Source: a virus (Duplodnaviria; Heunggongvirae; Uroviricota; Caudoviricetes). Taken from it: a stretch of DNA of 64,000 nt. Where the stretch lies: positions 30,216-94,215 of IMG/VR virus record IMGVR_UViG_3300007072_000340, one strand, 5' to 3'. The notes under the pieces are model-generated. The model saw nothing but the letters and a program-made list of their open reading frames with translations. It searched no databases and was not told the origin of the DNA. A program made the translations under genes and the position numbers. Every line of letters starts with the position of its first letter. Within the stretch, counting starts at the first letter, position 1. Positions 4,024 to 63,481 of this stretch are shown piece after piece.

Positions 4024-5635
4024 TCAATCTCCCTCGTGCGATCTCGCAGTTGTGTTCGGTCAACTCGACACCAATGCAACGGCGGCCAAGGCGCTTGGCT
4101 GCCAGTAGCGTCGAACCGCTACCGGCAAAGGGATCGAGAATCACACCGCCATCCGGGGTCGAGAGCAGCGTCAGCAGGTACTCCATAAGAGCAACTGGTT
4201 TAACGCACGGATGCAGATTGCCTCGCCTTCCTCTTGCGCTTATCTGCGATAGCACTCGCAATACAGCACTGACGGCACCAAGGAGAGATGCAAGTTCGTC
4301 GCCTGTAGAAGTCCGCAATCGGTCGATGTTGTCCGCAACGTCGGCAGGGTTTAATCCAGCCGCCAGCAGCGTCTTGATAGCACCCAGAATGGATGCGCTT
4401 GTGTTCGAGGAAACTGAGAAGTTGCAGGTTCTCAATTCGGTTGTCAGTCTTGTCAAGGTTGACATGGTGAACGCAATGGCCGTCCGGGATTGGTCCGTAA
4501 TGCCGCTCCCAGACAACATCGTGTTCCATTCGGAGCCGCCCAGACGGTCCATGCCGATAGCGGATATAGCCCTTACGTGTCGGAGCGTATCGTCCATCTC
4601 TTGGCTTAGGTCCACGTCGTCCCATGTCACCACCTTGTCGCAACCTCTGTTTCGCTCTTTCGTGGTGGCCTTGGCCGTATAGAAAAACCGGCTCGCCCCG
4701 CCGGAGTCGCCGTAGGCCACCTGCGCATCGCCGGCCTTGCCCATGCCGCCGTGGTAGCCGTCGCCGGCCTTCGTTCGCACGACACCGGTGCCGCTCTTGA
4801 GCGTCCCGGTCTGAGCATCGAGAAGGCGGGCGGCCTCTTCATCCAGCAAGAGATTGGCCGGCCAGCGTCCTTTGGTGGACTCGATGAACTGGCTGCCCTT
4901 CTTCTCGGCCGATTGCTTGATCCGCTCGCCTTGCTTGCCGTGGAAGGTCGTGCCGTTGCGGTCGGCGTTGTACTTGTAGCCGGGGTTGTCGCCGATGCGG
5001 CAGGCGTCGATGTTCATCCCCGCCACGCCCCACGTCAGGGCATTGTGGGCGATGGTGCCATCCATCGGCTTCATCGCCAGGGTTATCGGTTCCCAGCAGG
5101 GTTTCAGGGCATTAGCCCAGCCCGTCCACTTGGCGGCCTCGGGGGTCGCCGGAGCGGTAATGGCGCACTCGGCTTCGGGGTTGTGCAGATCGCCGTAGAC
5201 CTCGTTCGTGCGGCCGTTGTCCGCCAGCGAGTAACCCGGCCGTCCGAGTTTCGTGCCGACGACTTCGCGCACCGCGCCCCTCGCTTTGTCGATCATCTTG
5301 CCGATGTCGGCCGCTTTAGGGAAACCTTGCCCGTAGAGCCACATGAGGCAGTCCCGAATCTCCCACCCGGCATCCTCGATGGCGCAGGCCAGCCGGTGAT
5401 AGGTTCGCGTGCCGCCAAAGGCCAGCATCAGCGCGCCAGGCTTACACACCCGACCGATGGCCCGCCAGAACTCGGGACCAGGAACCTCATGGTCCCAGTC
5501 CTTTTCCATGAATGAATACCCGTAGGGCGGGTCCGTCACCACGCAATCCACGCTGTTCTCCGGCAGCGTCGGCAGCACTTGCCGCAGATCGCCGCAGTAC
5601 AGAGTCAGCTTGTCTTGCTCGAAGCAGGGTTGCAT
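4013..5635 (-). CDS. DNA methyltransferase (beta-class N6-adenine/N4-cytosine, phage type), with a ~140-codon atypical insertion
   Basis: Motif IV DPPYGY near N-terminus, GASRFFYTAKATTKER block, C-terminal HPCVKP...VILDPFAGSGSTLLAA (motif I, FxGxG). Start taken at MQPCFEQDKL (ATG 5635). The reading frame passes through the HNH ORF region (4200-4643) in a different frame. Confidence 0.75.
   Translation of the reverse strand: MQPCFEQDKLTLYCGDLRQVLPTLPENSVDCVVTDPPYGYSFMEKDWDHEVPGPEFWRAIGRVCKPGALMLAFGGTRTYHRLACAIEDAGWEIRDCLMWLYGQGFPKAADIGKMIDKARGAVREVVGTKLGRPGYSLADNGRTNEVYGDLHNPEAECAITAPATPEAAKWTGWANALKPCWEPITLAMKPMDGTIAHNALTWGVAGMNIDACRIGDNPGYKYNADRNGTTFHGKQGERIKQSAEKKGSQFIESTKGRWPANLLLDEEAARLLDAQTGTLKSGTGVVRTKAGDGYHGGMGKAGDAQVAYGDSGGASRFFYTAKATTKERNRGCDKVVTWDDVDLSQEMDDTLRHVRAISAIGMDRLGGSEWNTMLSGSGITDQSRTAIAFTMSTLTRLTTELRTCNFSVSSNTSASILGAIKTLLAAGLNPADVADNIDRLRTSTGDELASLLGAVSAVLRVLSQISARGRRGNLHPCVKPVALMEYLLTLLSTPDGGVILDPFAGSGSTLLAAKRLGRRCIGVELTEHNCEIARGRLNVG
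4200..4643 (-). CDS. HNH endonuclease ORF embedded out-of-frame inside the methyltransferase gene
   Basis: Classic HNH core EHDVVWERHYGPIPDGHCVHHVNLDKTDNRIENLQLLSFLEHKRIH plus Cys-rich tail; frame offset -1 relative to the MTase; its TAA stop overlaps the V-K codons just before MTase HPCVKP. Confidence 0.6.
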   Translation of the reverse strand: MRQGGDMGRRGPKPRDGRYAPTRKGYIRYRHGPSGRLRMEHDVVWERHYGPIPDGHCVHHVNLDKTDNRIENLQLLSFLEHKRIHSGCYQDAAGGWIKPCRRCGQHRPIADFYRRRTCISPWCRQCCIASAIADKRKRKARQSASVR

Positions 5636-49135: not shown

Positions 49136-49501
49136 ATGCAGCGCCACTTCCACCGCAACCGGCCACCCGCCGAGCCCCCGGCCGCCGGCTCCAAGCCGAG
49201 ACTAGAAATGGTGCGGCTTCCGATCTTCCGGGTCCACTACCGCCGGCTGGAAGAGTATCTCGCGGCGGTTTACCGGATGGAGGGCTTCGACTTCCTGCTG
49301 GCCTCTGGGGCGGTCCCTGGGCTGGTGCCGGAGTACGCCGTCAGCCCGACCCTACCGCTTTCCGAAGACGCCCGGCGGCGGGCCGACGCCATCCGCGCGG
49401 GCCGGCGCACCCGCGACGTGGCCCTGATCCTCAACGTGCTTTGCCTTGACGGCTACATCCCGGCCGGCAAGTACATCATCGACACCCGGCCCGAGCCGTG
49501 A
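49136..49501 (+). CDS. Small hypothetical protein
   Basis: Tightly coupled to the previous ORF; start possibly internal at MVRLPIFRV. Confidence 0.3.
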   Translation: MQRHFHRNRPPAEPPAAGSKPRLEMVRLPIFRVHYRRLEEYLAAVYRMEGFDFLLASGAVPGLVPEYAVSPTLPLSEDARRRADAIRAGRRTRDVALILNVLCLDGYIPAGKYIIDTRPEP

Positions 49502-49609
49502 AATCACGAAATGAGCGCGGCATGGCTTTCTGAACCAAGCTCTGTGCGTCTAACCAAAAAGGAAGGCCCGAAGGCCAAGATGATACCCGGCCTTCGGGCC
49601 TCAGTTTCG

Positions 49610-50722
49610 TCAGAGCAGGTTCACGACCCGCTCGGCCAGGCCCTTTTCGCCCAGCACGACGTTCAGCTTGCCGCTGGTGGCCACCTTCTCCAGGACTTCC
49701 AGTTCCCGGAGCCGCATGAGCGTCGGGTTGCCTTCCAGCACCTTGGCGGTGTTGGCCTGGCTGCGCATGGCCGCCGTCTCCTCACGGCGGACGATCAGGT
49801 TGGCCTCGGCCGCCTTCTTGGCCTCCGTGACCTTGTTCATCAGGTCCTTCATGTCACCCGGCAGGATCACGTCCCGGATTCCCACCGAGATCACCTCCAG
49901 ACCCAGCGCAGCCACCCGCTGCCGAACGATGGCCTCCAACTCCTTGGCCACGGCATCCTTGTCGGCGAGGAACTGGTCGAGTTCGCGAGCGCCAACCACG
50001 GCCCGCAGCGCCAACTGCGCCTCGCGGTAGAGCGCCTGACGGGCGTCGTCGGCCGCGCTCAGGGCCTTGTGGGCGTCGGCCACGCGGTAGGCGGCCACCG
50101 CGTTAAGCCGCAGCGTCACCTTGTCGGCGGTCATAATCTCCTGGCCGCCGATGTCCAGCATGGTCTCGCGCAGGTCCACCGGCACGAGCATGACCTTGGC
50201 CATGTTCTTCCAGAAGGCGTACTTGCCCGGCGGCAGGGTCTCGACGTAGCGGCCGTCCTCGAACAGCACGCCCACGTGGCCCTGCTCCACGGCAAAGGCG
50301 TCCAGGAGCCGGTCGGCCAACGCCGAGCGGACAATCACCTGAAGGTCCTTGTGCTCGAAGCGGACCTTGCGGGCGTCGATCACTTCCGTGGTGACCTCCC
50401 GGAAGGTGGTCCAGTAGGCGTACAGGCCCGGCGGCAGGATGTGGCTGAAACGGCCATCCACCCACACCAGCGCCCGCTCGTAGTCCTTCAGGTCCAGCAC
50501 GACTGCGCGGTCCTTCAGCGCACCCGACTTGACGATCACGTCGAGATTCTCGTGGGCGAGCCACGGCGCGCGCTGCGAGACGACCTCCACCTTGACCTTG
50601 CCCAGCGGGTCGAAGAACCAGTGGCGACCAGCGCCGAGCAAGCCCTTGAACTCGCCGTCGTGGAAGTACAGACCCATTTCGTAGCTGCGAATCCTGATGA
50701 TCTTCAGCGCAAGCACAGTCAT
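49610..50722 (-). CDS. SPFH/Band-7 domain protein
   Basis: Stomatin-like core plus C-terminal ELEVLEKVATSGKLNVVLG typical of band-7 proteins. Confidence 0.6.
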   Translation of the reverse strand: MTVLALKIIRIRSYEMGLYFHDGEFKGLLGAGRHWFFDPLGKVKVEVVSQRAPWLAHENLDVIVKSGALKDRAVVLDLKDYERALVWVDGRFSHILPPGLYAYWTTFREVTTEVIDARKVRFEHKDLQVIVRSALADRLLDAFAVEQGHVGVLFEDGRYVETLPPGKYAFWKNMAKVMLVPVDLRETMLDIGGQEIMTADKVTLRLNAVAAYRVADAHKALSAADDARQALYREAQLALRAVVGARELDQFLADKDAVAKELEAIVRQRVAALGLEVISVGIRDVILPGDMKDLMNKVTEAKKAAEANLIVRREETAAMRSQANTAKVLEGNPTLMRLRELEVLEKVATSGKLNVVLGEKGLAERVVNLL

Positions 50723-51157
50723 CCTTCACCTTCCTTCCTACCGCTTGTTGCGGCAGTCTCCGTCTCATTTCCGGTCATGTCAGGCAAAGCCGTTGGGCGG
50801 CGGAACCAGTGGCGATCACACGGAGGAATGCGGAATGTCGCTTGAGCATCGACGTAGCCTTGGGCGGCACGGCAGCTTCCATCGGGCTAGTCGTCGCCGG
50901 GGGCAAGCCCCGGCGGAAGTCACCCGACATCCGCTGCCACTTGCCGAAGGTCCGACGAAGCGGTATCCACGCACTGCATGGCACTCGGCCGTGCTGCCAC
51001 CCGCGATGGCGTGCCGAGCTTGCGCCGATTCCTCCGGGAGTCGCCCGATGGGCGGACTGCCCGGATTCCTCAACGCCGCCGGTCGTTCATTCGCCGGTGG
51101 CCGATCACACATTGGCCCGCCTCCCTCGGGCCGCTTGGAGCAGGGTTTCAGCCTGCG

Positions 51158-51230
51158 GTCTTGGTACGGGAGTCGAACCCGCGACAGCCAGATTCACGGT
51201 CTGGTGCTCTATCCGCTGAGCTAACCTGGT
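51158..51230 (-). tRNA. tRNA-like (anticodon GUG, His-like), probable pseudogene
   Basis: T-arm GCGGG/TTCGACT/CCCGT and D-arm present, anticodon loop CCGTGAA (C33); acceptor stem pairs poorly. Confidence 0.3.
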
Positions 51231-51339
51231 TGACACGACCTTCGGTCAGAACCCATTGACGGAACAAACGCCGCCAACCGCCTCATGTGAGGACGGGGCA
51301 ACGTGCGCCGTTGGCCTGGCCGTATCATTGCTTATGAAG

Positions 51340-51410
51340 AGACGCCGGTGGGAATCGAACCCACTTGAACCGGGTTGCGGCCGGTCGCCTTGCCATCTGG
51401 CTCCAGCGTC
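51340..51410 (-). tRNA. tRNA-Cys(GCA)
   Basis: Acceptor GACGCUG/CGGCGUC, T-loop TTCGATT, anticodon loop CCGCAAC (C33). Confidence 0.65.
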
Positions 51411-51413
51411 AAG

Positions 51414-51486
51414 CGTCCTCGCCAGGAGTCGAGCCTGGTCTTCGACCTTCGCAAGGTCGCGTGCGAATCCCCCACACTCCGAGGAC
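51414..51486 (-). tRNA. tRNA-Arg(GCG)
   Basis: Perfect 7-bp acceptor GTCCTCG/CGAGGAC; anticodon loop TTGCGAA; T-loop CTCGACT (C54). Confidence 0.55.
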
Positions 51487-51499
51487 CTTCGTTACTCAG

Positions 51500-51571
51500 C
51501 GCCCCGCCGAGGAATTGAACCCCGTCTTGCAGTTCCGAAGACTGCCGTGCTGTCCGGCACACTCGCAGGGC
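51500..51571 (-). tRNA. tRNA-Arg(UCG)
   Basis: Anticodon arm ACTGC/TTCGGAA/GCAGT... read as codon CGA on + strand; T-loop TTCAATT; acceptor with one G-U. Confidence 0.55.
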
Positions 51572-51583
51572 TTTTGCGTCGAG

Positions 51584-51676
51584 TATCCCGACCAGGAATC
51601 GAACCCGGGCACCGCCGCGCAGCGGTGGTCGCTGGAGCTTCGGAGGCTCCGATGCGATCCGCTACACCATCGGGAC
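51584..51676 (-). tRNA. tRNA-Arg(CCG)-like with 18-nt palindromic hairpin (caccgc cgcgca gcggtg) in the variable region
   Basis: T-arm CCGGG/TTCGATT/CCTGG, anticodon arm GGAGC-TTCGGAG-GCTCC on + strand (codon CGG); 93 nt total. Confidence 0.4.
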
Positions 51677-51762
51677 ATGAACCAAGGAGCCGACGACTGG
51701 ACTTGCACCAGCATCAAGCGGTTTACAGGACCGCTGCCTTTCTGTTCGGCCATGTCGGCAAG

Positions 51763-51832
51763 CACGAGCGCGAGGAGTCGAACCCCGTGCGGCAGGGTTG
51801 GAGTCTGCCTGCTCTCCCAAGAGCACGCTCGT
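51763..51832 (-). tRNA. tRNA-Trp(CCA)
   Basis: + strand anticodon loop gttggag (codon TGG, U33); acceptor ACGAGCG/CGCTCGT; T-arm CGGGG/TTCGACT/CCTCG. Confidence 0.5.
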
Positions 51833-51876
51833 GTATTGCCCCCGGCCACGAGGACCGGGGGCTTCTGGCGTAACGA

Positions 51877-52473
51877 CTACTTCTGCAACTCCACGTTCCA
51901 GTAGGCTTCGCTGATGAACTTGGACCAGCTTGCGATCCGCATGGTGTGGTCCGCGTACAGCGGCTTCCACGTGGGCCGGACGGGCTGCTTGCGCACGCGC
52001 ATCCGGGCCTGCTCCGGCGTCCGGTCAGCCTTCCGCTTGTTGCAGGCCATGCAAGCCAGCACGCAGTTTTCCCAACACGACACGCCACCTTGTGACCGCG
52101 GCAGCACGTGGTCGATCGTCAACTCCTCACTGCCCGGCTGCGCGCCGCAGTATTGGCAGGTGTAATGGTCCCGCTTGAACACGTTGCGACGGCTGAAGGT
52201 CACCGCGCCCAGCGGAAGCCGATCGTAGCCGGTCAATGCCACGACCTCCGGCACCCGCAGCCGGAACCGAACTGCCTGGACGAACGCCTCGCCATCCTTC
52301 GGCTTCAGCTTCGACCAGTCCGCCCAGGTGTAAAGCTGGAAGTCTTCGGGGTCCACCACGCGGGCCGACTCGTTCCAGAGCAGCACCAACGCACGCTCCA
52401 CGGTCGCTACGTGGACCGGCTGCCAGTTGCGGTTCAGGACCAGCGTCGGTTGCTCAAGGACCTTGGTGACCAT
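51877..52473 (-). CDS. HNH endonuclease embedded in the tRNA array
   Basis: HNH core CQYCGAQPGSEELTIDHVLPRSQGGVSCWENCVLACMACNKRKADR; flanked by tRNA-Trp (downstream) and tRNA-His (upstream). Confidence 0.8.
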   Translation of the reverse strand: MVTKVLEQPTLVLNRNWQPVHVATVERALVLLWNESARVVDPEDFQLYTWADWSKLKPKDGEAFVQAVRFRLRVPEVVALTGYDRLPLGAVTFSRRNVFKRDHYTCQYCGAQPGSEELTIDHVLPRSQGGVSCWENCVLACMACNKRKADRTPEQARMRVRKQPVRPTWKPLYADHTMRIASWSKFISEAYWNVELQK

Positions 52474-52492
52474 TGTGATCTCCGTCAGTAAG

Positions 52493-52567
52493 GGTGTCCG
52501 GGGAGAGTCGAACTCCCACCCTCTGGTTCACAGCCAGCCGTGCAGTGACCGCTACACCACGGACACC
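52493..52567 (-). tRNA. tRNA-His(GUG)
   Basis: Anticodon loop CTGTGAA, extra 5' G(-1) opposite C73 (His hallmark), acceptor GTGTCCG/CGGACAC. Confidence 0.7.
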
Positions 52568-52585
52568 ATGCGATTGTTGTCAGCA

Positions 52586-52655
52586 CCCCGACCGGGACTC
52601 GAAGTGCGGAACACCTCGGTAGAAACGAGGCATGATGTCCATTTCACCATCGGGG
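52586..52655 (-). tRNA. tRNA-Arg(UCU)-like, irregular T-arm
   Basis: Clean anticodon arm cctcg-gtagaaa-cgagg (codon AGA) and acceptor ccccgac/atcgggg, but T-stem does not pair. Confidence 0.35.
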
Positions 52656-52659
52656 CAAG

Positions 52660-52749
52660 CGGAAGGCATGGGATTTGAACCCACATGACACCTTTCGGCG
52701 TCGCACGGTTTAGCAAACCGGCCCGGCCAACCGTATCCGGCTACCTTCC
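52660..52749 (-). tRNA. tRNA-Ser(GCU)
   Basis: Type II, 90 nt; anticodon loop ttagcaa on + strand (codon AGC); long variable hairpin gacacc-tttc-ggcgtc; G73. Confidence 0.65.
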
Positions 52750-52764
52750 GTAATCACGCATCAG

Positions 52765-52835
52765 TGGACCGACCGGGAATTGAACCCGGATCTCCAGAAT
52801 GCCGTTCTGGTGTCTTCCCCTTGGACCATGAGCCC
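52765..52835 (-). tRNA. tRNA-Ala(GGC)
   Basis: G3:U70 pair present, A73; anticodon loop ACGGCAT (C33); T-arm CCGGG/TTCAATT/CCCGG. Confidence 0.7.
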
Positions 52836-52864
52836 GTTGTCGTTGTAGTGGACCCGACCACCGC

Positions 52865-52940
52865 TTCGCGGCGGTGCCCGGAGTCGAACCCATCGCACCG
52901 ATCTTGCACCCGATCAGTCGCCTCCACGGAACATGCCAGC
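52865..52940 (-). tRNA. tRNA-like element, unresolved (degenerate T-arm)
   Basis: gagtcgaaccc T-loop signature at 52882 but no consistent cloverleaf found by hand. Confidence 0.2.
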
Positions 52941-52951
52941 CCACGAATCGA

Positions 52952-53042
52952 AAGGTCTGTCCGGGAATTGAACCGGGCACCATGCGCAGCATGGTCCTTC
53001 CGCCTTACCGAGGAGGTGTGCTACCGAAACACCTACAGACCC
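52952..53042 (-). tRNA. tRNA-like element with palindromic insertion accatgc-gca-gcatggt, unresolved identity
   Basis: aattgaa T-loop signature, D-arm gtg-tgctaccgaaa-cac, acceptor aggtctg/cagaccc; anticodon not assignable. Confidence 0.25.
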
Positions 53043-53047
53043 TCAAG

Positions 53048-53120
53048 TGATCCCCGCTGGCATCGAACCAGCACTTTCCTGGTTGTCACCCAGGCGTCTT
53101 TGCCATTGGACCAGGGGATC
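53048..53120 (-). tRNA. tRNA-Val(GAC)
   Basis: Acceptor GATCCCC/GGGGATC perfect; anticodon loop ttgtcac on + strand (codon GTC); A73. Confidence 0.7.
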
Positions 53121-53127
53121 ATTCCAG

Positions 53128-53201
53128 TGACCGGAGTGGGAGTCGAACCCACAGGCACGAGGCTCTCGACCTCGCCGCTATGCCAGTTTGCGTACCCGGT
53201 C
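53128..53201 (-). tRNA. tRNA with Leu anticodon GAG but short (5-nt) variable loop
   Basis: Anticodon arm cgagg-ctctcga-cctcg (codon CTC, C33), D-arm cgc-tatgccagttt-gcg, A73; 74 nt. Confidence 0.5.
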
Positions 53202-53285
53202 GTGGCGGGTCCGGGGGTCGCACCCGGCGTTCCCGGCTTATGAGGCCGGGCTGAGCACTGGCCCACCCGCAGCATGTTTCCGAGT

Positions 53286-53372
53286 TGCAGGCCCCGGTAT
53301 CGAACCGGGCGCACCGGCCCGACCAACCTTCGGTCGGTGCCCGGAGCCAGTTGGGCACCTGCCGCGCCTGCA
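53286..53372 (-). tRNA. tRNA-like element, unresolved (about 85 nt)
   Basis: Perfect T-arm cccgg-tatcgaa-ccggg and acceptor tgcaggc/gcctgca; internal arms not resolved. Confidence 0.25.
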
Positions 53373-53408
53373 ATTCCTCAATGACCACCCGCGCCTGCAA
53401 TTCCTCAA

Positions 53409-53492
53409 TGACCACGGGGAGAGTCGAACTCCCAATGCCGCAAGGGCACGACGTTCTGACCGTCGCGTGTCTGCCAATTCCACCACATGGTC
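53409..53492 (-). tRNA. tRNA-Leu(CAG)
   Basis: Type II with 15-nt variable arm; anticodon loop ttctgac on + strand (codon CTG); D-arm gtg-tctgccaattc-cac; A73. Confidence 0.7.
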
Positions 53493-53501
53493 ATGCTGCC
53501 T

Positions 53502-53594
53502 GAGTGGCCCGTGCGGGAGTTGAACCCGCCTTTCCGGCTGACCATGCTGCGCATGGTGCCCGGGCCGGCGTCCTGTACCGATAGACGAACGAGC
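53502..53594 (-). tRNA. tRNA-like paralogue of tRNA-Glu(55603) carrying an 18-nt palindromic insertion in the anticodon loop
   Basis: Shares acceptor, T-arm, D-arm (gtc-ctgtaccgata-gac ga acgagcc) with 55603..55675; anticodon stem ccggc/gccgg encloses 25 nt including ccatgc-tgc-gcatgg. Confidence 0.35.
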
Positions 53595-53602
53595 CAGTTG
53601 AG

Positions 53603-53686
53603 TGCGCCGGGCAGGAGTTGAACCTGCATAGCCTTTCGGGCTGGCTGCTTTACAGGCAGTTGGGCACGCCGATGCCCAGCCGACGC
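53603..53686 (-). tRNA. tRNA-Tyr(GUA)
   Basis: Type II; variable hairpin agcc-tttcg-ggct; anticodon loop tttacag (codon TAC); A73. Confidence 0.7.
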
Positions 53687-53700
53687 ATGTTGTTCGTGAG

Positions 53701-53774
53701 TGGCGCAGGTGGGACTCGAACCCGCAATCACCAAGGTTTGAGCTTGGCCGCTTTGCCGATTTGCGTACCGCGCC
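53701..53774 (-). tRNA. tRNA with Leu anticodon CAA but short variable loop
   Basis: Anticodon arm ccaag-gtttgag-cttgg (codon TTG, U33); D-arm cgc-tttgccgattt-gcg; A73; 74 nt. Confidence 0.5.
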
Positions 53775-53788
53775 GCCACTGGTCGAAA

Positions 53789-53864
53789 GCGCCCTCGACG
53801 GGATTTGAACCCGCGATCTCCTGCGTGACAGGCAGGCGAGCACTCCAGGCTGCTCCACGAGGAC
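53789..53864 (-). tRNA. tRNA-Asp(GUC)
   Basis: Anticodon arm cctgc-gtgacag-gcagg (codon GAC); T-loop TTCAAAT; G73. Confidence 0.7.
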
Positions 53865-53876
53865 AAACATTTCCAG

Positions 53877-53951
53877 TGGCCCAGGCGGGACTCGAACCCA
53901 CAGCATCCCTGGTTCTAAGCCAAGGTGGTCTGCCAGATTGCCTACGGGGCC
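53877..53951 (-). tRNA. tRNA with Leu anticodon UAG but short variable loop
   Basis: Anticodon arm cctgg-ttctaag-ccaag (codon CTA); D-loop tctgccagatt like 53128 and 53701; A73. Confidence 0.45.
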
Positions 53952-53952
53952 G

Positions 53953-54046
53953 TGCCCAGGGCCGGAGTCGAACCCGAAACCGCCTGCCACCACCGCTACG
54001 CGGCGGTGCCCGAGCCAAGCCGCTCTGCCAATTGGCGTACCTGGGC
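53953..54046 (-). tRNA. tRNA-like element with hairpin caccgc-tacgcg-gcggtg, unresolved
   Basis: D-arm cgc-tctgccaattg-gcg and acceptor gcccagg/cctgggc match the 53128/53701/53877 family; T-stem and anticodon arm irregular. Confidence 0.25.
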
Positions 54047-54053
54047 GATCAAG

Positions 54054-54125
54054 TAGCCCCGGATGGAGTCGAACCATCGTTTCCTGGGTGTGGACCAAGC
54101 GTCGTTGCCGTTGGACCACGGGGCT
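54054..54125 (-). tRNA. tRNA-Val(CAC)
   Basis: Anticodon arm cctgg-gtgtgga-ccaag (codon GTG, C33); D-arm gtc-gttgccgttg-gac as in Val(GAC); A73. Confidence 0.65.
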
Positions 54126-54137
54126 GAGTCGCCAAAG

Positions 54138-54208
54138 TGGAGTCACCGAGAGTCGCACTCGGATTTCCATCTTGCGGAGGTGGCGTCGTCCTGTTGGACC
54201 ATGACCCC
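54138..54208 (-). tRNA. tRNA-Ala(CGC)
   Basis: G3:U70, A73; anticodon loop ttgcgga (codon GCG, C33); T-loop TGCGACT non-canonical. Confidence 0.55.
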
Positions 54209-54214
54209 AAAAGG

Positions 54215-54300
54215 CGGAAGCCGTGGGACTCGAACCCACAAGCGGCTGCTGGCCGCCACCTGTTTTCAAGACAGGCCCCTCATCCGGCCGGATGACTTCC
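54215..54300 (-). tRNA. tRNA-Ser(UGA)
   Basis: Type II; variable hairpin gcggc-tgctg-gccgc; anticodon arm cctgt-tttcaag-acagg (codon TCA); G73. Confidence 0.7.
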
Positions 54301-54309
54301 GTATTGAAG

Positions 54310-54380
54310 CTGCGGAGGCTGGAATCGAACCAACATGAAGACGTTCAGAGCGTCTCATCCTACCGTTAGATGACTCCGCA
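54310..54380 (-). tRNA. tRNA-Gln(CUG)
   Basis: Anticodon arm agacg-ttcagag-cgtct (codon CAG); perfect acceptor tgcggag/ctccgca; G73. Confidence 0.7.
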
Positions 54381-54418
54381 TTGCGTTGCTCATCGAGACA
54401 CCGCCATGTCGTCGCAAG

Positions 54419-54489
54419 TTCGGGGAGGAGGGGTCAAACCTCCGTCTCCTGGTTCAAAGCCAGACGGCCTACCACTAGCCGATCCCCGA
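54419..54489 (-). tRNA. tRNA-Gln(UUG)
   Basis: Anticodon arm cctgg-ttcaaag-ccaga (codon CAA); T-loop TTTGACC atypical. Confidence 0.55.
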
Positions 54490-54490
54490 G

Positions 54491-54562
54491 AGTGCCCTGC
54501 GGGAATCGAACCCGCCTAGCCAGCTTGGAAGGCTGGAGCCTTTGCCGATCGGCCAAGGGCAC
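54491..54562 (-). tRNA. tRNA-Gly(UCC)
   Basis: Fully canonical cloverleaf checked base by base; anticodon loop CTTCCAA; U73. Confidence 0.8.
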
Positions 54563-54567
54563 GAAGG

Positions 54568-54651
54568 CGGAAGGTGAGGGAGTCGAACCCCCAAGGCTCG
54601 TCGCTCGGCCGCTTTCGGGGTGGCTGCCATCGCCAGTTGGCTTGACCTTCC
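54568..54651 (-). tRNA. tRNA-Ser(CGA)
   Basis: Type II; anticodon arm gccgc-tttcggg-gtggc (codon TCG, C33); G73; perfect acceptor ggaaggt/accttcc. Confidence 0.55.
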
Positions 54652-54666
54652 GTTCTCTCCAAAAGG

Positions 54667-54754
54667 CTCCGGCGGCTGGACTCGAACCAGCGGTGGGGCA
54701 AACGCCACGTCGCCTTAACAGGCCGATCCCTGCTACCAACTCGGGTACACCGGA
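54667..54754 (-). tRNA. tRNA with Asn anticodon GUU carrying a 16-nt hairpin in the variable region
   Basis: Anticodon arm tcgcc-ttaacag-gccga (codon AAC); D-arm ccc-tgctaccaactc-ggg; 88 nt. Confidence 0.4.
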
Positions 54755-54762
54755 TCACAAAG

Positions 54763-54836
54763 TCAGGACGGCGGGATTTGAACCCGCGCTCTCGTGCTCC
54801 CGAAGCACGCGGAATACCGGGCTTTCCTACGTCCTG
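54763..54836 (-). tRNA. tRNA-Pro(CGG)
   Basis: Anticodon arm cgtgc-tcccgaa-gcacg (codon CCG); D-arm ggaa-taccgggct-ttcc; A73. Confidence 0.7.
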
Positions 54837-54846
54837 TTAATCAAGA

Positions 54847-54916
54847 GCGCCCAGCGGGAGTTGAACCCGCGCTTCCGCCTCGGCAAGGCGGCAGGCTGCC
54901 GCTACATCATGGGCGC
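54847..54916 (-). tRNA. tRNA-Gly(GCC)
   Basis: Anticodon arm ccgcc-tcggcaa-ggcgg (codon GGC); perfect acceptor; U73. Confidence 0.7.
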
Positions 54917-54949
54917 GATCTCATGTGGGCCGGATTGTCAAAGATCAAG

Positions 54950-55021
54950 AGCACCGGGCGGGACTCGAACCCGCGTCGCCGCATTACGGGTGCGGTGTCC
55001 TTGCCGCTGGACGACCAGTGC
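54950..55021 (-). tRNA. tRNA-Thr(CGU)
   Basis: Anticodon arm ccgca-ttacggg-tgcgg (codon ACG, C33). Confidence 0.6.
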
Positions 55022-55032
55022 GTTTCTCGCAG

Positions 55033-55105
55033 TGGGACCAGAGGAACTTGAACCCTCACCTGGCGGATTAAGAGTCCGCTGTGCTGCCGCTAGCACCTTG
55101 ATCCC
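55033..55105 (-). tRNA. tRNA-Lys(CUU)
   Basis: Anticodon arm gcgga-ttaagag-tccgc (codon AAG); T-loop TTCAAGT; A73. Confidence 0.7.
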
Positions 55106-55121
55106 GTCTTTTGTCCACCAG

Positions 55122-55194
55122 TCGGCGCGGAGGGAGTCGAACCCTCGACCTGACCCTTATAAGAGGTCTGCTCTCACCGCTGAGCTACACGCCA
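55122..55194 (-). tRNA. tRNA-Ile(UAU)
   Basis: Anticodon loop CTTATAA (codon ATA on + strand); D-arm gctc-tcaccgct-gagc; A73. Confidence 0.6.
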
Positions 55195-55199
55195 GCGAG

Positions 55200-55271
55200 T
55201 AGGGCCGGAGGGGATCGAACCCACATCTGCCGGATTAAAAGTCCGGTGTGCTGCCATTACACCACGACCCT
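55200..55271 (-). tRNA. tRNA-Lys(UUU)
   Basis: Anticodon arm ccgga-ttaaaag-tccgg (codon AAA); A73. Confidence 0.7.
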
Positions 55272-55341
55272 GTACTTGGTCGGGCGTATGCGTTTCAACC
55301 GGGTCAACATCGTTTCACTCCTCGTGTTTGTTCGCGCCAAG

Positions 55342-55413
55342 TGGTAGTCCTGAGAATCGAACTCAGCGCCGCGCGGTTATCAGCCGCGTTCGGGCAACCA
55401 GCCCTCGACTACC
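55342..55413 (-). tRNA. tRNA-Ile(GAU)
   Basis: Anticodon arm cgcgg-ttatcag-ccgcg (codon ATC); perfect T-arm ctgag-aatcgaa-ctcag; A73. Confidence 0.65.
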
Positions 55414-55439
55414 TCGTGCCAACGTCGTTGTCGATCCAG

Positions 55440-55512
55440 TCGGGATGGCAGGACTCGAACCTGCGTCTCCGTGCTCCCAAAGCACGTGGGCTCGCCGCTA
55501 CCCTACATCCCG
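55440..55512 (-). tRNA. tRNA-Pro(UGG)
   Basis: Anticodon arm cgtgc-tcccaaa-gcacg (codon CCA); same anticodon stem as Pro(CGG); A73. Confidence 0.7.
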
Positions 55513-55520
55513 CACCTCAG

Positions 55521-55595
55521 TCAGAACGGCCGGATTTGAACCGGCGATCTCCTGCACCCCGAGCAGGCGCGATACCCAGGCTTCGCTACGTTCTG
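55521..55595 (-). tRNA. tRNA-Pro(GGG)
   Basis: Anticodon arm cctgc-accccga-gcagg (codon CCC, C33); perfect acceptor cagaacg/cgttctg; A73. Confidence 0.6.
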
Positions 55596-55602
55596 ATCGC
55601 AG

Positions 55603-55675
55603 TAGCCCGTGCGGGAGTCGAACCCGCCTTTTCGGCTTGAAGGGCCGATGTCCTCAACCGATAGACGAACGAGCC
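55603..55675 (-). tRNA. tRNA-Glu(UUC)
   Basis: Anticodon arm tcggc-ttgaagg-gccga (codon GAA, C33); D-arm gtc-ctcaaccgata-gac. Confidence 0.6.
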
Positions 55676-55734
55676 GCGTCGGCGCGCACCTTCCACGCAG
55701 CCGGAACCCAGGTTGGCGCGCACGCTCAGCGTAG

Positions 55735-55806
55735 TGGGCCGGGAGGTGCTCGAACCCTCGTCTGCTGCTTTTCAGGCCGCCGCTACACCATCTCAGCTAC
55801 CAGCCC
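55735..55806 (-). tRNA. tRNA-Phe(GAA)
   Basis: Anticodon arm gctgc-ttttcag-gccgc (codon TTC); D-arm gct-acaccatctc-agc; first tRNA of the array in transcription order. Confidence 0.55.
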
Positions 55807-55810
55807 AACG

Positions 55811-55852
55811 AAAAAACCCGGTGTCACTTCCACTTGTGACACCGGGTTTCTT
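55811..55852 (-). terminator. Rho-independent terminator (strong on minus strand, bidirectional-like)
   Basis: 11-bp perfect stem cccggtgtcac/gtgacaccggg, loop ttccactt, A-run one side and T-run the other; sits upstream of the tRNA array, downstream of the 56.2-57.5 kb genes. Confidence 0.7.
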
Positions 55853-56242
55853 GAAACCCATCGTGACGTAAGGTCAAGCGTCACAAGCGCAAAGGATGCA
55901 CGGGCAGGGTATTCGCCGGTTGACCGGCGTAACGCCCTGTGCATCGTGGTTCGCTTGCTATACTTGACCTAAACGAAGTCATCGCCCTTCTCGCAAGTTC
56001 TGGTGCTCCTGGAAACCGGCCGACTGCATCCGTCGGCCCTTATACGTATAGACGCCGCAGGGGCCAAGAAGGTTCATCGGATTTTTCGTCGTCGTCGCCC
56101 CAGTAATAGTATAGATACTCTTCGAGGGCGGCTTATTCCCTCGAAAATGCCGAAAAGCCGCTACCAGCCTGCCGCTTGGCCCTGTTGCCTGCCGGCTCGC
56201 GCCGGCCGGTGGAGGACTCTCCGCGCGGGGACGCGACCGCGG

Positions 56243-56533
56243 CTATGGCCGTTGTTTCTTCTTGCCGGCGGTCTCGGCCGCCGTCCGCATCTCTGTTTGC
56301 ACAGCTCGCGTGTCGGCGATGATCGCCGACAGGGCCTCGCAGAAAGTCTGCGCATCCAGCAATCGCAAGGGGTTCTGCATCGACGCAGCCGGAAAGGTGA
56401 CAATAATCTCAGAGCCACGACCGGCCCTGTAGTTCCTGATCTCGGAACGAATCACCATCGCGCTGCTTGCGGTCCCCTGGAAAGGTTGCGCCGTCAATCG
56501 AACGCCCCAGTCAAAGTCCTCACGCTCGATCAA
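56243..56533 (-). CDS. Hypothetical protein
   Basis: 96-aa ORF MIEREDFDWGVRLTAQ... Confidence 0.4.
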   Translation of the reverse strand: MIEREDFDWGVRLTAQPFQGTASSAMVIRSEIRNYRAGRGSEIIVTFPAASMQNPLRLLDAQTFCEALSAIIADTRAVQTEMRTAAETAGKKKQRP

Positions 56534-60470: not shown

Positions 60471-61271
60471 CTAGCTGCAAGCGGCACAAGCCGGCTGTCG
60501 TTTCGTCACGTTGCCCAGGTACTCCCTGCCGAGATAGCGGTCGATTAGCCGCCAGACCATCATGTGCGTGAACACGCCCCCTTCGGGCCGGCGCTTCGTC
60601 GGCCGTGTCTTGAAACCCTGTTCGTTGAGCCAGGTCACGATCTTGTCGAGCGTCTGGCCTTCTTCTCGCCGGCGCTTGATCTCGGGCACGAGAACCTGCT
60701 GATACCGCTCCCTTGCCTTCTGGGCATTGGCGGCCGAACCCAGCGGTTGCGCCTTCCTGACGCCTCGCAGGTGCTCGCGTCCGTCCCAATGACCGGGCCG
60801 CGCCGAACCGAGCAGCTTGCCCCTGGCCTTCGTTGCCGCCAAGGCCGCCTTCGTGCGGGCCGCGATCTGGCGGGCCTCGTGTTCCGCTACGGCCGCGAGG
60901 ACTTGAATGTTGAACCGGTCGGCATACGGGTTGTCGCAGCACACGAAGTCCAATTCCGCGTGCAGCAGGCAATTCAGGAAGTAGCAGTTGCGGGCTAGCC
61001 GGTCCAACTTGGCGACCACCAACGTCGAATTGGTCAGCCGGGCATGGTGAATCGCCTCTTGCAGCTTCGGCCGCGCCGATTTCTTGCCGGTTTCGATCTC
61101 GATGTACTCAGCAATCACGGTCGCGCCGTGGGCGAGCACCAGTTGGCGGACCATTTCCTTCTGGGCTTCCAGGCCCAGGCCGCTCTTGCCTTGCTTCTTC
61201 GTGCTCACGCGGTAGTAGGCGACGATCTTGATGATCTTCTCGATGCTGATGCTCACGGTGGCTGTCTCCAA
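60471..61271 (-). CDS. Small serine recombinase (resolvase/invertase family)
   Basis: Catalytic region VAYYRVSTKKQGKSGLGLEAQ, LVVAKLDRLARN, C-terminal HTH-like region. Confidence 0.75.
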   Translation of the reverse strand: METATVSISIEKIIKIVAYYRVSTKKQGKSGLGLEAQKEMVRQLVLAHGATVIAEYIEIETGKKSARPKLQEAIHHARLTNSTLVVAKLDRLARNCYFLNCLLHAELDFVCCDNPYADRFNIQVLAAVAEHEARQIAARTKAALAATKARGKLLGSARPGHWDGREHLRGVRKAQPLGSAANAQKARERYQQVLVPEIKRRREEGQTLDKIVTWLNEQGFKTRPTKRRPEGGVFTHMMVWRLIDRYLGREYLGNVTKRQPACAACS

Positions 61272-62737: not shown

Positions 62738-63481
62738 TCACGACGGCACCGCCACCTTGCTGCCCTGGGTCCGCTTCCTGATGTTGCCGAGCCATTCCTT
62801 TCCCAGGTAGCGGCCGATCAGCCGCCACACGGCCGTCTGGGTGAAGGGCTTGCCGGCCGTCGTAACCTTGCCTTGCTGGTTCAGCCACTCGACGATCTCC
62901 GGCAGGGTGTCGCCCCGTTCCCGCCGGGCCTTGATCTCCGGCATCAAGTAGGCATAGGTGTTTTTCGTCCGCTCCTTCTTCTTTCGGGCCGCTGCGGCAA
63001 TCGCCAGCTTCGTCCCCCGCAGGTGCTCCCGGCCCTTCCAGTGATTCGGGTTCGCCGATGCGAGTTTCACGCCCCGCGCCTTCGCCGCGGCCAACGCGGT
63101 CTTGGCCCGGTCACTGACTTTGCGGGTTTCTTCCTCAGCCACGTTCGCAATGATATGGATGGTCGTCCGATTGATGTCGTGGTTGTCCAGGCACACGAAG
63201 TCCACCTGGCTCTCCAACAGCAGCCGAGTTGCCGGGACGTTTCGAGCCAGCCGGCCCAGGTGGCAAACGACTAACGTAGCCTCAGACCGGAGCGCATGTT
63301 CGACGGCCTTGGGGAACTCCGTTCGCCGGTTGTGCTTTCCCTCCTTCTCCGTGTACGTGGCGATGATCCGTCCGTTGTTGTAGCTGACGAACCGCTCGGC
63401 TTCTTCTCGCTGCGCCGCAAGGTCAACGTGCAAACGGCTTTTCTTCGGCCAGGACCGGTAGTAGACGATGTAGCGTTTCAT
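62738..63481 (-). CDS. Small serine recombinase, paralogue of 60471..61271
   Basis: IVYYRSWPKKS...LVVCHLGRLARN...FVCLDNHD...NHWKGREHLRG parallels the first recombinase. Confidence 0.65.
   Translation of the reverse strand: MKRYIVYYRSWPKKSRLHVDLAAQREEAERFVSYNNGRIIATYTEKEGKHNRRTEFPKAVEHALRSEATLVVCHLGRLARNVPATRLLLESQVDFVCLDNHDINRTTIHIIANVAEEETRKVSDRAKTALAAAKARGVKLASANPNHWKGREHLRGTKLAIAAAARKKKERTKNTYAYLMPEIKARRERGDTLPEIVEWLNQQGKVTTAGKPFTQTAVWRLIGRYLGKEWLGNIRKRTQGSKVAVPS

Follow-up and report, generated by a model that had tools for sequence, protein, structure and literature searches.

L-arrays hold up to 43 tRNA genes, which are supernumerary, occur in seven phyla including Planctomycetes, are spread by horizontal gene transfer (HGT) and have a linked, co-regulated HNH gene (PMC8421152). 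The trn operon of Anabaena sp. PCC 7120 is cryptic and is induced by translational stress (Santamaria-Gomez et al. 2021, PMC8421152). A tRNA array unit has been defined by a minimum of 20 tRNA genes spaced at 2 or more per kb, and Planctomycetes are among the phyla listed (Tran et al. 2016, PMC4758250). Phage tRNA clusters of 15–37 genes have been recorded in genomes of 72–617 kb, 8 of 228 having all 20 isotypes (Morgado & Vicente, PMC5966550, PMC6409571), and the 2019 survey found no clear exchange of arrays between phage and host outside Mycobacterium (PMC6409571). Here we analysed a window of 64,000 nt, which is the whole stretch of DNA studied and to which all positions below refer, from the tailed-phage record IMGVR_UViG_3300007072_000340. 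Its minus strand carries a dense array of tRNA genes that is preceded by a conserved leader, holds an HNH endonuclease gene and is followed by an SPFH gene. This array is probably a whole copy, captured by the phage and carried as cargo, of a Planctomycetota tRNA operon that moves horizontally and is gated by an attenuator in its leader.

By its architecture and by the published description, the module resembles the L-arrays: it is long, non-periodic, confined to one strand, HNH-linked and horizontally transferred, and it includes some pseudogenes. In Anabaena, 9-nt repeats that overlap the promoter exert the control, and the array is preceded by the HNH gene; the module described here differs in having a leader peptide, an antiterminator and a terminator, an HNH gene inside the array, an SPFH gene in last place and a phage as carrier. 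With 38–43 genes in 4.65 kb, and with copies that are syntenic to each other while their flanks are unrelated, it falls under the definition of a tRNA array unit, and no leaders, embedded genes or phage carriage are described for the Planctomycetes units in the survey of Tran et al. (PMC4758250). The mycobacteriophage clusters share with it a tailed phage as carrier, HNH genes within or beside the cluster and related arrays in the hosts, and phages were proposed as the vector there (PMC5966550, PMC6409571). In contrast to those clusters, the present one has 38 intact genes, all 20 isotypes and a chromosomal counterpart with 81–87% nucleotide identity, and its probable hosts are Planctomycetota. 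The kind of array and the HNH link are already known; this copy lies near the top of the range of gene numbers and lacks no isotype. New are the putative leader-peptide attenuator, the invasion of tRNA loops by a palindrome and Leu tRNAs with a short variable arm.

The initial annotation had described about 40 tRNA genes on the minus strand, co-oriented with the structural genes, and both the count and the orientation are borne out. The total is 43 tRNA-type units between 51157 and 55806: 38 apparently intact, 4 disrupted and 1 tRNA-like. ARAGORN called 36 tRNA genes with default settings, all on the minus strand within 51157–55806 and none elsewhere in the window, and 41 when the threshold was set to 90%, both well above the roughly 25 that the initial annotation had taken as its lower limit. 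The Rfam scan of the whole window gave 26 matches to RF00005 above gathering. With laxer filters on 50800–56300 there were 28 RF00005 matches of at least 29 bits, and the tRNA-Sec model was best for four further units (three Ser and Trp, 32–46 bits), which gives 32 matches of clan CL00001 in the array and identifies the units as tRNA genes. No RNA family other than tRNA claimed the region in the Rfam scan of the window, a check that the initial annotation had itself proposed. The strict T-loop motif GGTTCRANYC occurs 31 times in the 64 kb, 30 of them in the minus-strand array, against 2.9 expected from shuffled sequences. The inventory below combines ARAGORN structures, Rfam scores and orthology with related arrays, the last of which named the remaining units. 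The 38 intact units, which are those not marked as disrupted, have 38 different anticodons and cover all 20 amino acids.

52492..55806, minus strand: tRNA block 1, about 35 units (ARAGORN, Rfam), in an order matching that of chromosomal arrays L110, L164, L177 and L169
Block 1, first part: Phe-GAA, Glu-UUC, Pro-GGG, Pro-UGG, Ile-GAU, Lys-UUU, Ile-UAU, Lys-CUU, Thr-CGU, Gly-GCC, Pro-CGG, Asn-GUU
Block 1, second part: Ser-CGA, Gly-UCC, Gln-UUG, Gln-CUG, Ser-UGA, Ala-CGC, Val-CAC, Leu-UAA (disrupted), Leu-UAG, Asp-GUC, Leu-CAA, Tyr-GUA
Block 1, third part: Glu-CUC (disrupted), Leu-CAG, a CAU-type unit (disrupted), Met-CAU, Leu-GAG, Val-GAC, Thr-GGU, Ala-UGC (disrupted), Ala-GGC, Ser-GCU, Arg-UCU, His-GUG
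51339..51832, minus strand: tRNA block 2, six genes, namely Trp-CCA, Thr-UGU, Arg-CCG (94 nt, with a hairpin in the variable loop), Arg-UCG, Arg-GCG and Cys-GCA
53952..54046, minus strand: disrupted Leu-UAA
53504..53595, minus strand: disrupted Glu-CUC
53284..53363, minus strand: disrupted second CAU-type unit
within 52836..52951, minus strand: disrupted Ala-UGC
51157..51230, minus strand: tRNA-like unit (Rfam 46 bits) with three acceptor-stem mismatches and canonical D, anticodon and T arms

Spacers between the units measure 0–69 nt except at the HNH gene and at one degenerate unit, and the density is about 9 units per kb over 4.65 kb, with the HNH gene (0.6 kb) included. A Met(CAU) gene, which the initial annotation had not found among the genes it resolved, is present at 53202–53271; its 1:72 pair is mismatched and its D arm is odd, and the gene recurs in other arrays.

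Copies of the same module were found in chromosomes. A search with an exact 25-nt pattern of a hairpin element that recurs in the array, run on one genome per species, returned 71 genome stretches, nearly all from metagenome-assembled genomes (MAGs) of Planctomycetota (Pirellulales, Thermoguttaceae, Planctomycetia, Gemmataceae) and some from Gemmatimonadota. At 26 of these loci, again nearly all in Planctomycetota MAGs and some on contigs of 0.5–4 Mb, at least five tRNA genes stand in the gene order of the window, and the largest chromosomal arrays have 39 (L177), 37 (L164) and 35 (L110) tRNA genes. The order of the complete module, namely leader, about 35 units, HNH gene, six tRNA genes, tRNA-like unit, SPFH gene and terminator, recurs in many Planctomycetota MAGs. 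The closest copy, L110, is 81–87% identical in nucleotide sequence across 56154–51338, and homology to the MAG copies spans 56154 to 49566, the same extent as the insertion specific to the phage. Chromosomal copies have mutually unrelated flanks, which consist of ordinary cellular genes or of defence and mobile-element genes; none of the window's phage genes was found beside a chromosomal copy. The unrelated contexts in different MAGs, together with one phage lineage that has the module and 12 relatives that do not, indicate horizontal transfer. Some chromosomal copies adjoin AbiEi and nuclease genes, and in L110 a DUF5677 gene (1810–2625) and a DDE transposase gene (3972–5402) lie between tRNA genes, neither of which is present in the window copy.

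The protein-coding genes of the module and its end are the following.

51877..52473, minus strand: HNH endonuclease gene, 198 amino acids, between tRNA-His and tRNA-Trp (Pfam HNH and HNH_5, E about 2e-13)
49610..50722, minus strand: SPFH/Band-7 gene, 370 amino acids, the last gene of the module (Pfam Band_7, E = 3e-34)
49563..49602, minus strand: closing intrinsic terminator with a 17-pair stem and a T-rich tail; MAG homology ends at 49566

The HNH protein has a catalytic HNH motif (Pfam HNH, HNH_5 and HNH_4 over residues 106–159) and resembles the HNH domains of IscB, Cas9 and PDB 4h9d. The initial annotation was right that this is a gene inside the array, while its description of the gene as interrupting the array does not hold: a homologue with 72–95% amino acid identity sits at the same His–Trp position in eight genome loci and nine metagenome loci (95% for the L110 copy), so that it is a fixed resident of the module. 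Compared with the L110 copy, the HNH gene has 30 synonymous and 10 nonsynonymous codon differences and is thus under purifying selection. No empty allele was seen, as every array covering the His–Trp interval has the gene or a frameshifted copy, and with neither an empty allele nor a target site, classical homing of the HNH gene alone is not supported; homing of the whole module is possible. In phage T4 the endonuclease SegB lies in the tRNA region and plausibly drives its preferential inheritance (Brok-Volchanskaya et al. 2008, as cited in PMC8421152). By analogy with SegB as reported there, the HNH enzyme may help the module to persist or spread by cutting array-less alleles, although SegB is a GIY-YIG enzyme, the embedded enzyme here is of HNH type and no presence/absence polymorphism was seen here. 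Scans of IMG/VR with the HNH peptide returned only distant homologues with at most 47% identity. Two of these, in L001 (1330–18920, 47%) and L013 (6385–11183, 30%), adjoin tRNA clusters of 10 and 17 genes on unrelated contigs, and L001 also has a transfer-messenger RNA (tmRNA) gene; the HNH family thus recurs beside viral tRNA clusters. Between the HNH stop codon and tRNA-Trp, at 51836–51862, there is a GC-rich hairpin (GCCCCCGG..CCGGGGGC) with no T-run, which could be a processing or stabilising element. The SPFH gene follows the array also in L149, L137, L119, L191, L224 and L228, with 74–97% amino acid identity (74–91% for the MAG copies). PADLOC returned nothing for the SPFH protein or the neighbouring proteins and only generic HNH-domain matches for the HNH protein.

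The carrier is a phage because TerL, portal, P22-type coat and tape measure proteins are encoded in the window, along with a helicase, a methyltransferase and two serine recombinases. The initial annotation had considered the array unusually large for a genome of about 60 kb; the phage contig measures 88,884 nt (about 89 kb), and arrays are documented in phage genomes of 72 kb and more (PMC6409571). Identical phage–array junctions are found in ENA, JGI and Logan assemblies, and the phage was seen in several samples by exact-sequence look-up of its HNH protein. As the junctions are repeated across assemblies, the arrangement is not an assembly chimera. Relatives in IMG/VR have TerL proteins with 60–94% identity, and a 476-amino-acid protein encoded just upstream of the array is 58–93% identical in them. 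No tRNA gene was found in the 10 kb downstream of the gene for this protein in any of 12 relative loci. Comparison with these loci delimits the insertion.

49498..56254, minus strand: whole inserted module, about 6.7 kb, between synteny breaks relative to 12 phage loci

The two break points (about 56254 and about 49498) are 190–1000 bp apart in the relatives and 6.75 kb apart in the window. The closest relative, L026 (12290–19869), has another insert of 7.5 kb at the site, with genes for an SNF2 helicase, a PLD nuclease and a 502-amino-acid protein on the opposite strand; it has the look of a defence cassette. This unrelated insert identifies the site as an accessory-gene hot spot; it is variable in content and is flanked, in this siphovirus-like phage, by the early region on one side and the packaging genes on the other. 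One of the 12 relative loci has a tmRNA gene, and the hot spot holds such a gene in L023 (12661–13113). In L240, a 1.1-kb metagenome fragment, the module leader adjoins the same two small phage genes, which are 76% identical in nucleotide sequence, so that at least two phages, diverged by about 24% in flanking genes, hold the module at the same site. Megablast of the region against 50,697 GenBank phage records found only 45-nt tRNA matches, no further viral contig with an array came up when IMG/VR was scanned with SPFH, the hairpin pattern and two patterns of the leader, and the small open reading frames (ORFs) around the insertion had no match in NCBIfam or Pfam. Two serine recombinase (resolvase/invertase) genes at 60471–61271 and 62738–63481, upstream of the module, suggest a temperate or invertible-segment lifestyle, and the carrier phage is probably temperate.

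The module begins with a leader. About 300 nt before tRNA-Phe are conserved in all arrays examined, in an alignment of 14 arrays (A1) and in one of 20 genome loci (A2). Its elements are listed in the order of transcription; uORF stands for upstream open reading frame and GC3 for the G+C fraction at third codon positions.

56108..56140, minus strand: promoter-like block (GGGAATAA ... TATCTATACT) at the 5′ end of the module, conserved in A1, a putative promoter
55881..55982, minus strand: leader uORF, 33 codons plus TGA, reading MTSFRSSIASEPRCTGRYAGQPANTLPVHPLRL*, GC3 0.52
55872..55886, minus strand: 5′ strand of the proposed antiterminator (region 2), containing the uORF stop codon
55811..55852, minus strand: intrinsic terminator, inverted repeat I7 with 17-nt arms and a T-run, ending 5 nt before tRNA-Phe

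The strong hairpin with its T-run had been noticed in the initial annotation as bounding the array; the hairpin is real, and it sits 5′ of the first tRNA gene as part of the conserved leader. The leader terminator is present in 24 genome array loci, and the gap between terminator and tRNA-Phe is 5–50 nt across loci. A promoter would not fit into this gap, and transcription of the array must therefore pass the terminator.

A uORF of 31–33 codons is kept in 18 of the 20 genome-locus leaders, where all five indels are multiples of three, and the same TGA closes the uORF in the leaders, 31–37 nt before the terminator stem. A metagenome scan with the leader pattern matched at least 120 contigs, and 116 of the matches listed had enough upstream sequence; the metagenome counts given here refer to the matches listed. 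The uORF was found in 97 of these 116 leaders, with 88 distinct peptides and the consensus M.S[LFI][RW]SS....E.[RK][CG].G.[FY]A[GD]QPANTLP.HPLRL*. A tRNA gene lies within 400 nt of 87 leaders, is tRNA-Phe in 70 of them, and up to 43 tRNA genes follow. Of 106 distinct leaders, 95 have no stop in frame 0 for 32 codons, compared with 57 and 21 for the other frames. Single-nucleotide codon differences are synonymous in 41% of cases versus 25–27% in shifted frames, and third positions are the most variable. The C-terminal PLRL* is conserved at the peptide level, its Pro drawing on all four synonymous codons; Pro30 is encoded by CCT, CCG or CCC and Arg5 by AGG or CGG. Translation of the uORF is supported by the tests of frame, synonymous change and indels.

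RNAalifold returned three helices with some compensatory changes in each: the terminator, a hairpin internal to the uORF, and a long-range helix of codons 5–6 with bases just past the stop codon. The antiterminator is a helix proposed by us, in which the strand with the stop codon binds the terminator's 5′ arm and loop; 84.9% of alignment cells can form its pairs, versus 25–43% when the partner is slid. Nascent transcripts that stop short of the terminator's 3′ arm were then folded under an imposed ribosome footprint of 29 nt. With the A site at codon 4, 9 or 13, the models gave 11–17 antiterminator pairs in 19/19 testable leaders, and with the ribosome at the stop codon 0 pairs in 19/19. When no ribosome was present, 8/19 leaders formed a 1:2 helix and no antiterminator. 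Codon use in the uORFs is also distinct: GC3 is 0.58 in uORFs, 0.83 in phage genes and 0.90 in the HNH and SPFH genes, and several rare codons are frequent.

ATA: 16 per 1000 codons in uORFs, 1.4 per 1000 in phage genes
TTA: 10 per 1000 in uORFs, 0.7 per 1000 in phage genes
AGA: 10 per 1000 in uORFs, 1.1 per 1000 in phage genes
AGT: 28 per 1000 in uORFs, 4.0 per 1000 in phage genes

The rare codons are enriched 6–14 fold in uORFs, with no run of a single codon, and RNA-structure constraint confounds this signal. At codon 4, ATA or TTA stands in 13 of the 20 leaders from genome loci.

In amino-acid operons (trp, his, phe) the attenuator comprises a short leader ORF with regulatory codons, a 1:2 pairing, a 2:3 antiterminator and a 3:4 terminator (PMC1183508, PMC3082878). 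In our computational models the leader of the array has the corresponding properties, namely a conserved leader ORF ahead of a terminator and an antiterminator that excludes the terminator and depends on ribosome position, and the stop codon is placed, as in trp-type attenuators, so that a terminating ribosome would mask region 2. It differs from the amino-acid attenuators in standing ahead of tRNA genes and in having mixed rare codons, a longer peptide and a conserved C-terminus, (H/Y)PLRL. We infer that the leader is a trp-type, ribosome-sensing attenuator of a tRNA operon. No Rfam family and no T-box (E up to 10) matched the leader or the hairpin element, and in the literature searched we found no description of ribosome-mediated attenuation of a tRNA operon.

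Under this proposal the array would be transcribed as a single precursor whose synthesis is gated by ribosome-mediated attenuation. The uORF would act as sensor through its richness in codons that are rare in the GC-rich background (ATA, TTA, AGA, AGG, AGT, TCA). During normal translation the ribosome would reach the PLRL stop and mask region 2, the terminator would form and the array would stay silent. Early stalling, caused by tRNA shortage, starvation, tRNA cleavage or ribosome inhibitors, would free region 2, allow the antiterminator to form and lead to a back-up set of tRNAs, with the precursor processed by host RNase P, 3′ nucleases and the CCA-adding enzyme. As the array supplies tRNAs for rare codons (Ile-UAU, Ser-GCU, Ser-UGA, Arg-UCU, and Leu-UAA in intact copies), the loop would be self-limiting. 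The benefit to the phage would be a near-complete tRNA pool, reading 97.5% of its codons, that buffers late-gene translation against tRNA depletion of any cause when the translation capacity of the host falls during infection. The array could in this way free the phage from the tRNA pool of its host, although it did not originate for that use. The layout of leader, terminator and antiterminator suggests low basal expression with induction by stress.

The second new feature is a palindrome of about 22 nt, GGGCACC-stem-loop-stem-GGT, with six copies in the array and none elsewhere in the window.

53989..54011, minus strand: copy replacing the anticodon loop of Leu-UAA
53540..53563, minus strand: copy replacing the anticodon loop of Glu-CUC, repeat I3
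53321..53344, minus strand: copy in the second CAU-type unit, repeat I5
52857..52879, minus strand: copy in the degenerate Ala-UGC unit, repeat I1
52973..52996, plus strand (inverse): copy in the long variable arm of Thr-GGU, 100% complementary to 53540–53563
51607..51629, plus strand (inverse): copy in the long variable arm of Arg-CCG

These copies explain the 90–95-nt "long" Arg and Thr genes and the four disrupted units of the window. Over 72 loci (the window and 71 genome loci, L109–L179) there are 123 copies, 80 of them in arrays (65%), of which 48 are inside tRNA genes called by ARAGORN; the exact 25-nt pattern occurs at up to seven loci in one MAG. The orientation of the element is tied to its position in the tRNA. 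Read in the tRNA sense, ACC...GGTGCCC always occupies positions 45–53, from the variable loop into the 5′ strand of the T-stem (34 cases, at least 17 tRNA species), and gives tRNAs of 90–96 nt, and GGGCACC...GGT always occupies positions 28–36 in the anticodon loop (13 cases), with the anticodon destroyed in each. Arg-CCG of the window and of L110 agree at 71 of 73 positions and differ by a 21-nt insertion and two T-stem changes; in Thr-CGU of L110 the anticodon CGTA is replaced by 24 nt. Pairwise comparisons showed replacement of loop nucleotides and no clean insertion with duplication, and three stem-sequence variants of the element keep pairing. The element also occurs away from tRNA genes, for example in the viral contig L108 (634–658).

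Repetitive extragenic palindromic (REP) elements and the palindromic elements of Rickettsia are small, dispersed, hairpin-forming repeats that can sit inside genes. The element found here is similar in consisting of many near-identical, GC-rich hairpins of about 22 nt dispersed in one lineage (Planctomycetota and some Gemmatimonadota), as in REP elements or miniature inverted-repeat transposable elements (MITEs). It differs from the REP and Rickettsia palindromes in that about 65% of its copies are in tRNA arrays and in the link between its orientation and its position in the tRNA. On this pattern we treat it as a small palindromic repeat that would preferentially invade array tRNAs. No transposase for it was identified, and no search aimed at one was made. 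Introns of the bacterial or archaeal type were ruled out, as the element is found in both orientations and also outside tRNA genes, and as the tmRNA genes of related viral contigs (L001, L023) point to bacterial hosts. The intron mode of ARAGORN gave spurious plus-strand tRNAs with introns of 437–2708 nt, and one 18-nt "intron" that is the hairpin element.

As read from the sequences, bacterial identity elements of the array tRNAs fit their anticodons: G3:U70 in both Ala tRNAs, a G-1 in His that the gene encodes and that faces C73, C1:G72 together with A73 in Pro, discriminators A73 in Leu, Phe, Lys, Ile and Val, U73 in Cys and Gly and G73 in Asp, Trp and Asn, and long variable arms in Ser, Tyr and Leu-CAG. 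The exceptions are Leu-UAG (53876–53951), Leu-CAA (53700–53774) and Leu-GAG (53127–53201), which have short variable arms. The short-arm Leu genes (UAG, CAA, GAG, and UAA in other arrays) measure 74–79 nt, are conserved in L110, L164, L177 and L169 and keep a Leu-like long D loop and A73; Leu-CAG is the only one of the usual long-arm type. CCA is encoded in none of the units, so that host 3′ processing and the host CCA-adding enzyme are needed. Nearly all units end in N73-C-T, and the C-T after the discriminator base is a conserved 3′ trailer that may guide processing of the RNase Z type.

Several single genes have features of their own. The tRNA-Asn(GUU) gene (54665–54754, also L110:1639–1728) is 90 nt long because of an insertion of about 14 nt in the variable region (GTGGCG..CCCCAC), which is distinct from the hairpin element, and the Asn gene of most other arrays measures 73–77 nt. 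Ile-UAU (55121–55194) is the tRNA used for AUA, so that no lysidine is needed, and Arg-GCG (51413–51486) replaces the usual bacterial Arg-ACG, which is found at that position in L149 and L161. At about 53364–53417 there is a 27-nt tandem duplication (GTGGTCATTGAGGAATTGCAGGCGCGG, two copies) that takes in the 3′ end of the Leu-CAG acceptor stem. The tRNA-like unit that follows tRNA-Cys has a D arm, an anticodon stem and a T arm that are nearly invariant between copies, and its "anticodon" reads GTG, GTT, AAG, ATC, AGT or CAG in orthologues (L119, L137, L149, L177, L191, L204, L212, L224, L229). It may be a processing punctuation ahead of the SPFH mRNA; its reading as an att-site relic was dropped, since it is kept at the same place in chromosomal arrays. 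A conserved spacer (51231–51338) adjoins it.

Taken as a whole, the proposal is that a mobile Planctomycetota tRNA operon is carried by the phage and switched on by a leader-peptide attenuator that measures the decoding of rare codons, while the same arrays are remodelled by the 22-nt palindrome; in this full form it may well be correct, with about as much room for doubt as for belief. A number of observations count against it. In the leader, a scan with the sigma-70 consensus flagged no promoter for the module, the block at 56108–56140 included, and the Shine-Dalgarno signals of the uORF are weak. Covariation in the antiterminator is modest, with three double-change pairs and 15–138 of 500 shuffles reaching the observed measures, and the case for this helix appears to rest mainly on conserved complementarity. 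At equilibrium the terminator always won when the full leader of the window was folded, and the switch must accordingly be kinetic. Constraint from RNA structure on the uORF nucleotides could inflate the apparent bias to rare codons. In addition, 24 of the metagenome leader matches have no tRNA gene within 400 nt, and some of these are chance matches to the pattern. In the array, four of the five Leu genes, among them Leu-UAG, Leu-CAA and Leu-GAG (75–76 nt), are without the long variable arm that a bacterial tRNA-Leu should have; Infernal gave low scores (under 25 bits) or none to about six ARAGORN calls (Tyr, Arg-GCG, Met-CAU, Ile-GAU, Leu-GAG, Arg-UCG), and some of the poorly scoring ARAGORN calls may be non-functional. 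The four to five inactivated units mean that the module may be decaying in the phage copy. The hosts of the phage are probably Planctomycetota, on the evidence of likeness of the mobile module itself. With regard to the leaders without an array, a few among 24 metagenome loci (L204, L222, L279 and 21 others) have SPFH, or only tRNA-Cys and SPFH, after the leader; these loci may represent shortened modules whose leader acts on SPFH and nothing else, and some are perhaps chance matches.

The explanation that survives best beside this proposal is counter-defence, in which the module replaces host tRNAs that were cleaved by anticodon nucleases or otherwise depleted and the attenuator senses the depletion. 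In T5-like phages, tRNAs are on record that evade anticodon nucleases. An inducible tRNA set that is complete and stands behind a sensor of stalling would fit such a role, as would the defence-like cassette at the hot spot in L026 and the AbiEi and nuclease genes beside some chromosomal copies. No tRNA-targeting nuclease was identified in any flank, and we consider this role possible but rather unlikely; it is also a special case of the attenuated mobile operon and not a true alternative to it.

The module could also be a passive, decaying passenger that arrived by illegitimate recombination at a cargo hot spot and has no function for the phage. Four units destroyed by hairpin insertions, the bad acceptor stem of the tRNA-like unit, the lack of the module in most relatives and the unrelated cargo that the hot spot holds elsewhere are all as expected for a passenger. 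We nevertheless judge this improbable: the HNH gene is under purifying selection, the SPFH gene is undamaged, with identities of up to 97% to other copies, nothing is broken in uORF, antiterminator or terminator, a second phage with flanks diverged by about 24% holds the module at the same site, and the phage occurs in several samples. Disrupted units are, moreover, found in chromosomal copies too, such as Thr-CGU in L110.

To the same degree improbable, in our view, is that the leader is no attenuator, the small ORF encoding a functional micro-protein or the leader being a small RNA, with the hairpin ending that unit and the array having its own promoter or constitutive read-through. The peptide is conserved at the amino acid level, which a regulatory uORF does not strictly need, the leader pattern sometimes occurs with no tRNA genes downstream, and the gap of 5–50 nt before tRNA-Phe excludes a promoter yet proves no regulation. 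Conserved C-terminal motifs are, however, typical of ribosome-pausing leader peptides such as TnaC. In all leaders the stop codon is inside the strand complementary to the 5′ arm of the terminator, at a distance to the terminator fixed at 31–37 nt, footprint modelling switches 19/19 leaders, and with no space for a promoter before the first tRNA gene transcription must cross the terminator.

Least probable, and quite doubtful, is that the phage itself put the array together and retains it to suit its codon usage and to do without the host tRNA pool, as the initial annotation had suggested: in 30 phage genes 97.5% of the codons can indeed be read by the 38 anticodons, array and late genes run in the same direction and phage tRNA sets fitted to phage codon usage are documented (PMC6409571), but the set is complete and not tuned, serving codons that the phage hardly uses (ATA and AGA), its order and content are those of a ready-made module common to the chromosomes of many Planctomycetota, its anticodon set is largely no more different from those of the chromosomal arrays than these are among themselves, twelve close relatives with similar genes do without an array, and the module brings its own leader and terminators. 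The earlier description of the region is largely right, and its interpretation needs revision.

The locus bears on why large tRNA arrays exist in phages and mobile elements and on how they are controlled. For the mobile, attenuator-gated Planctomycetota operon proposed here, a single cassette is common to a phage and to the chromosomes of its probable hosts, in a second phylum after the case of Mycobacterium (PMC6409571). Short-arm tRNA-Leu, Ile-UAU and the tRNAs lengthened by the palindrome are natural experiments on tRNA identity and structure. The leader, found in front of more than 100 environmental copies, would offer a concrete mechanism for the "cryptic but stress-inducible" behaviour of the unrelated L-array of Anabaena. 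If the proposal is true, this would be the first tRNA operon under ribosome-mediated attenuation, and the silence of L-arrays in the absence of translational stress would have a mechanistic explanation.

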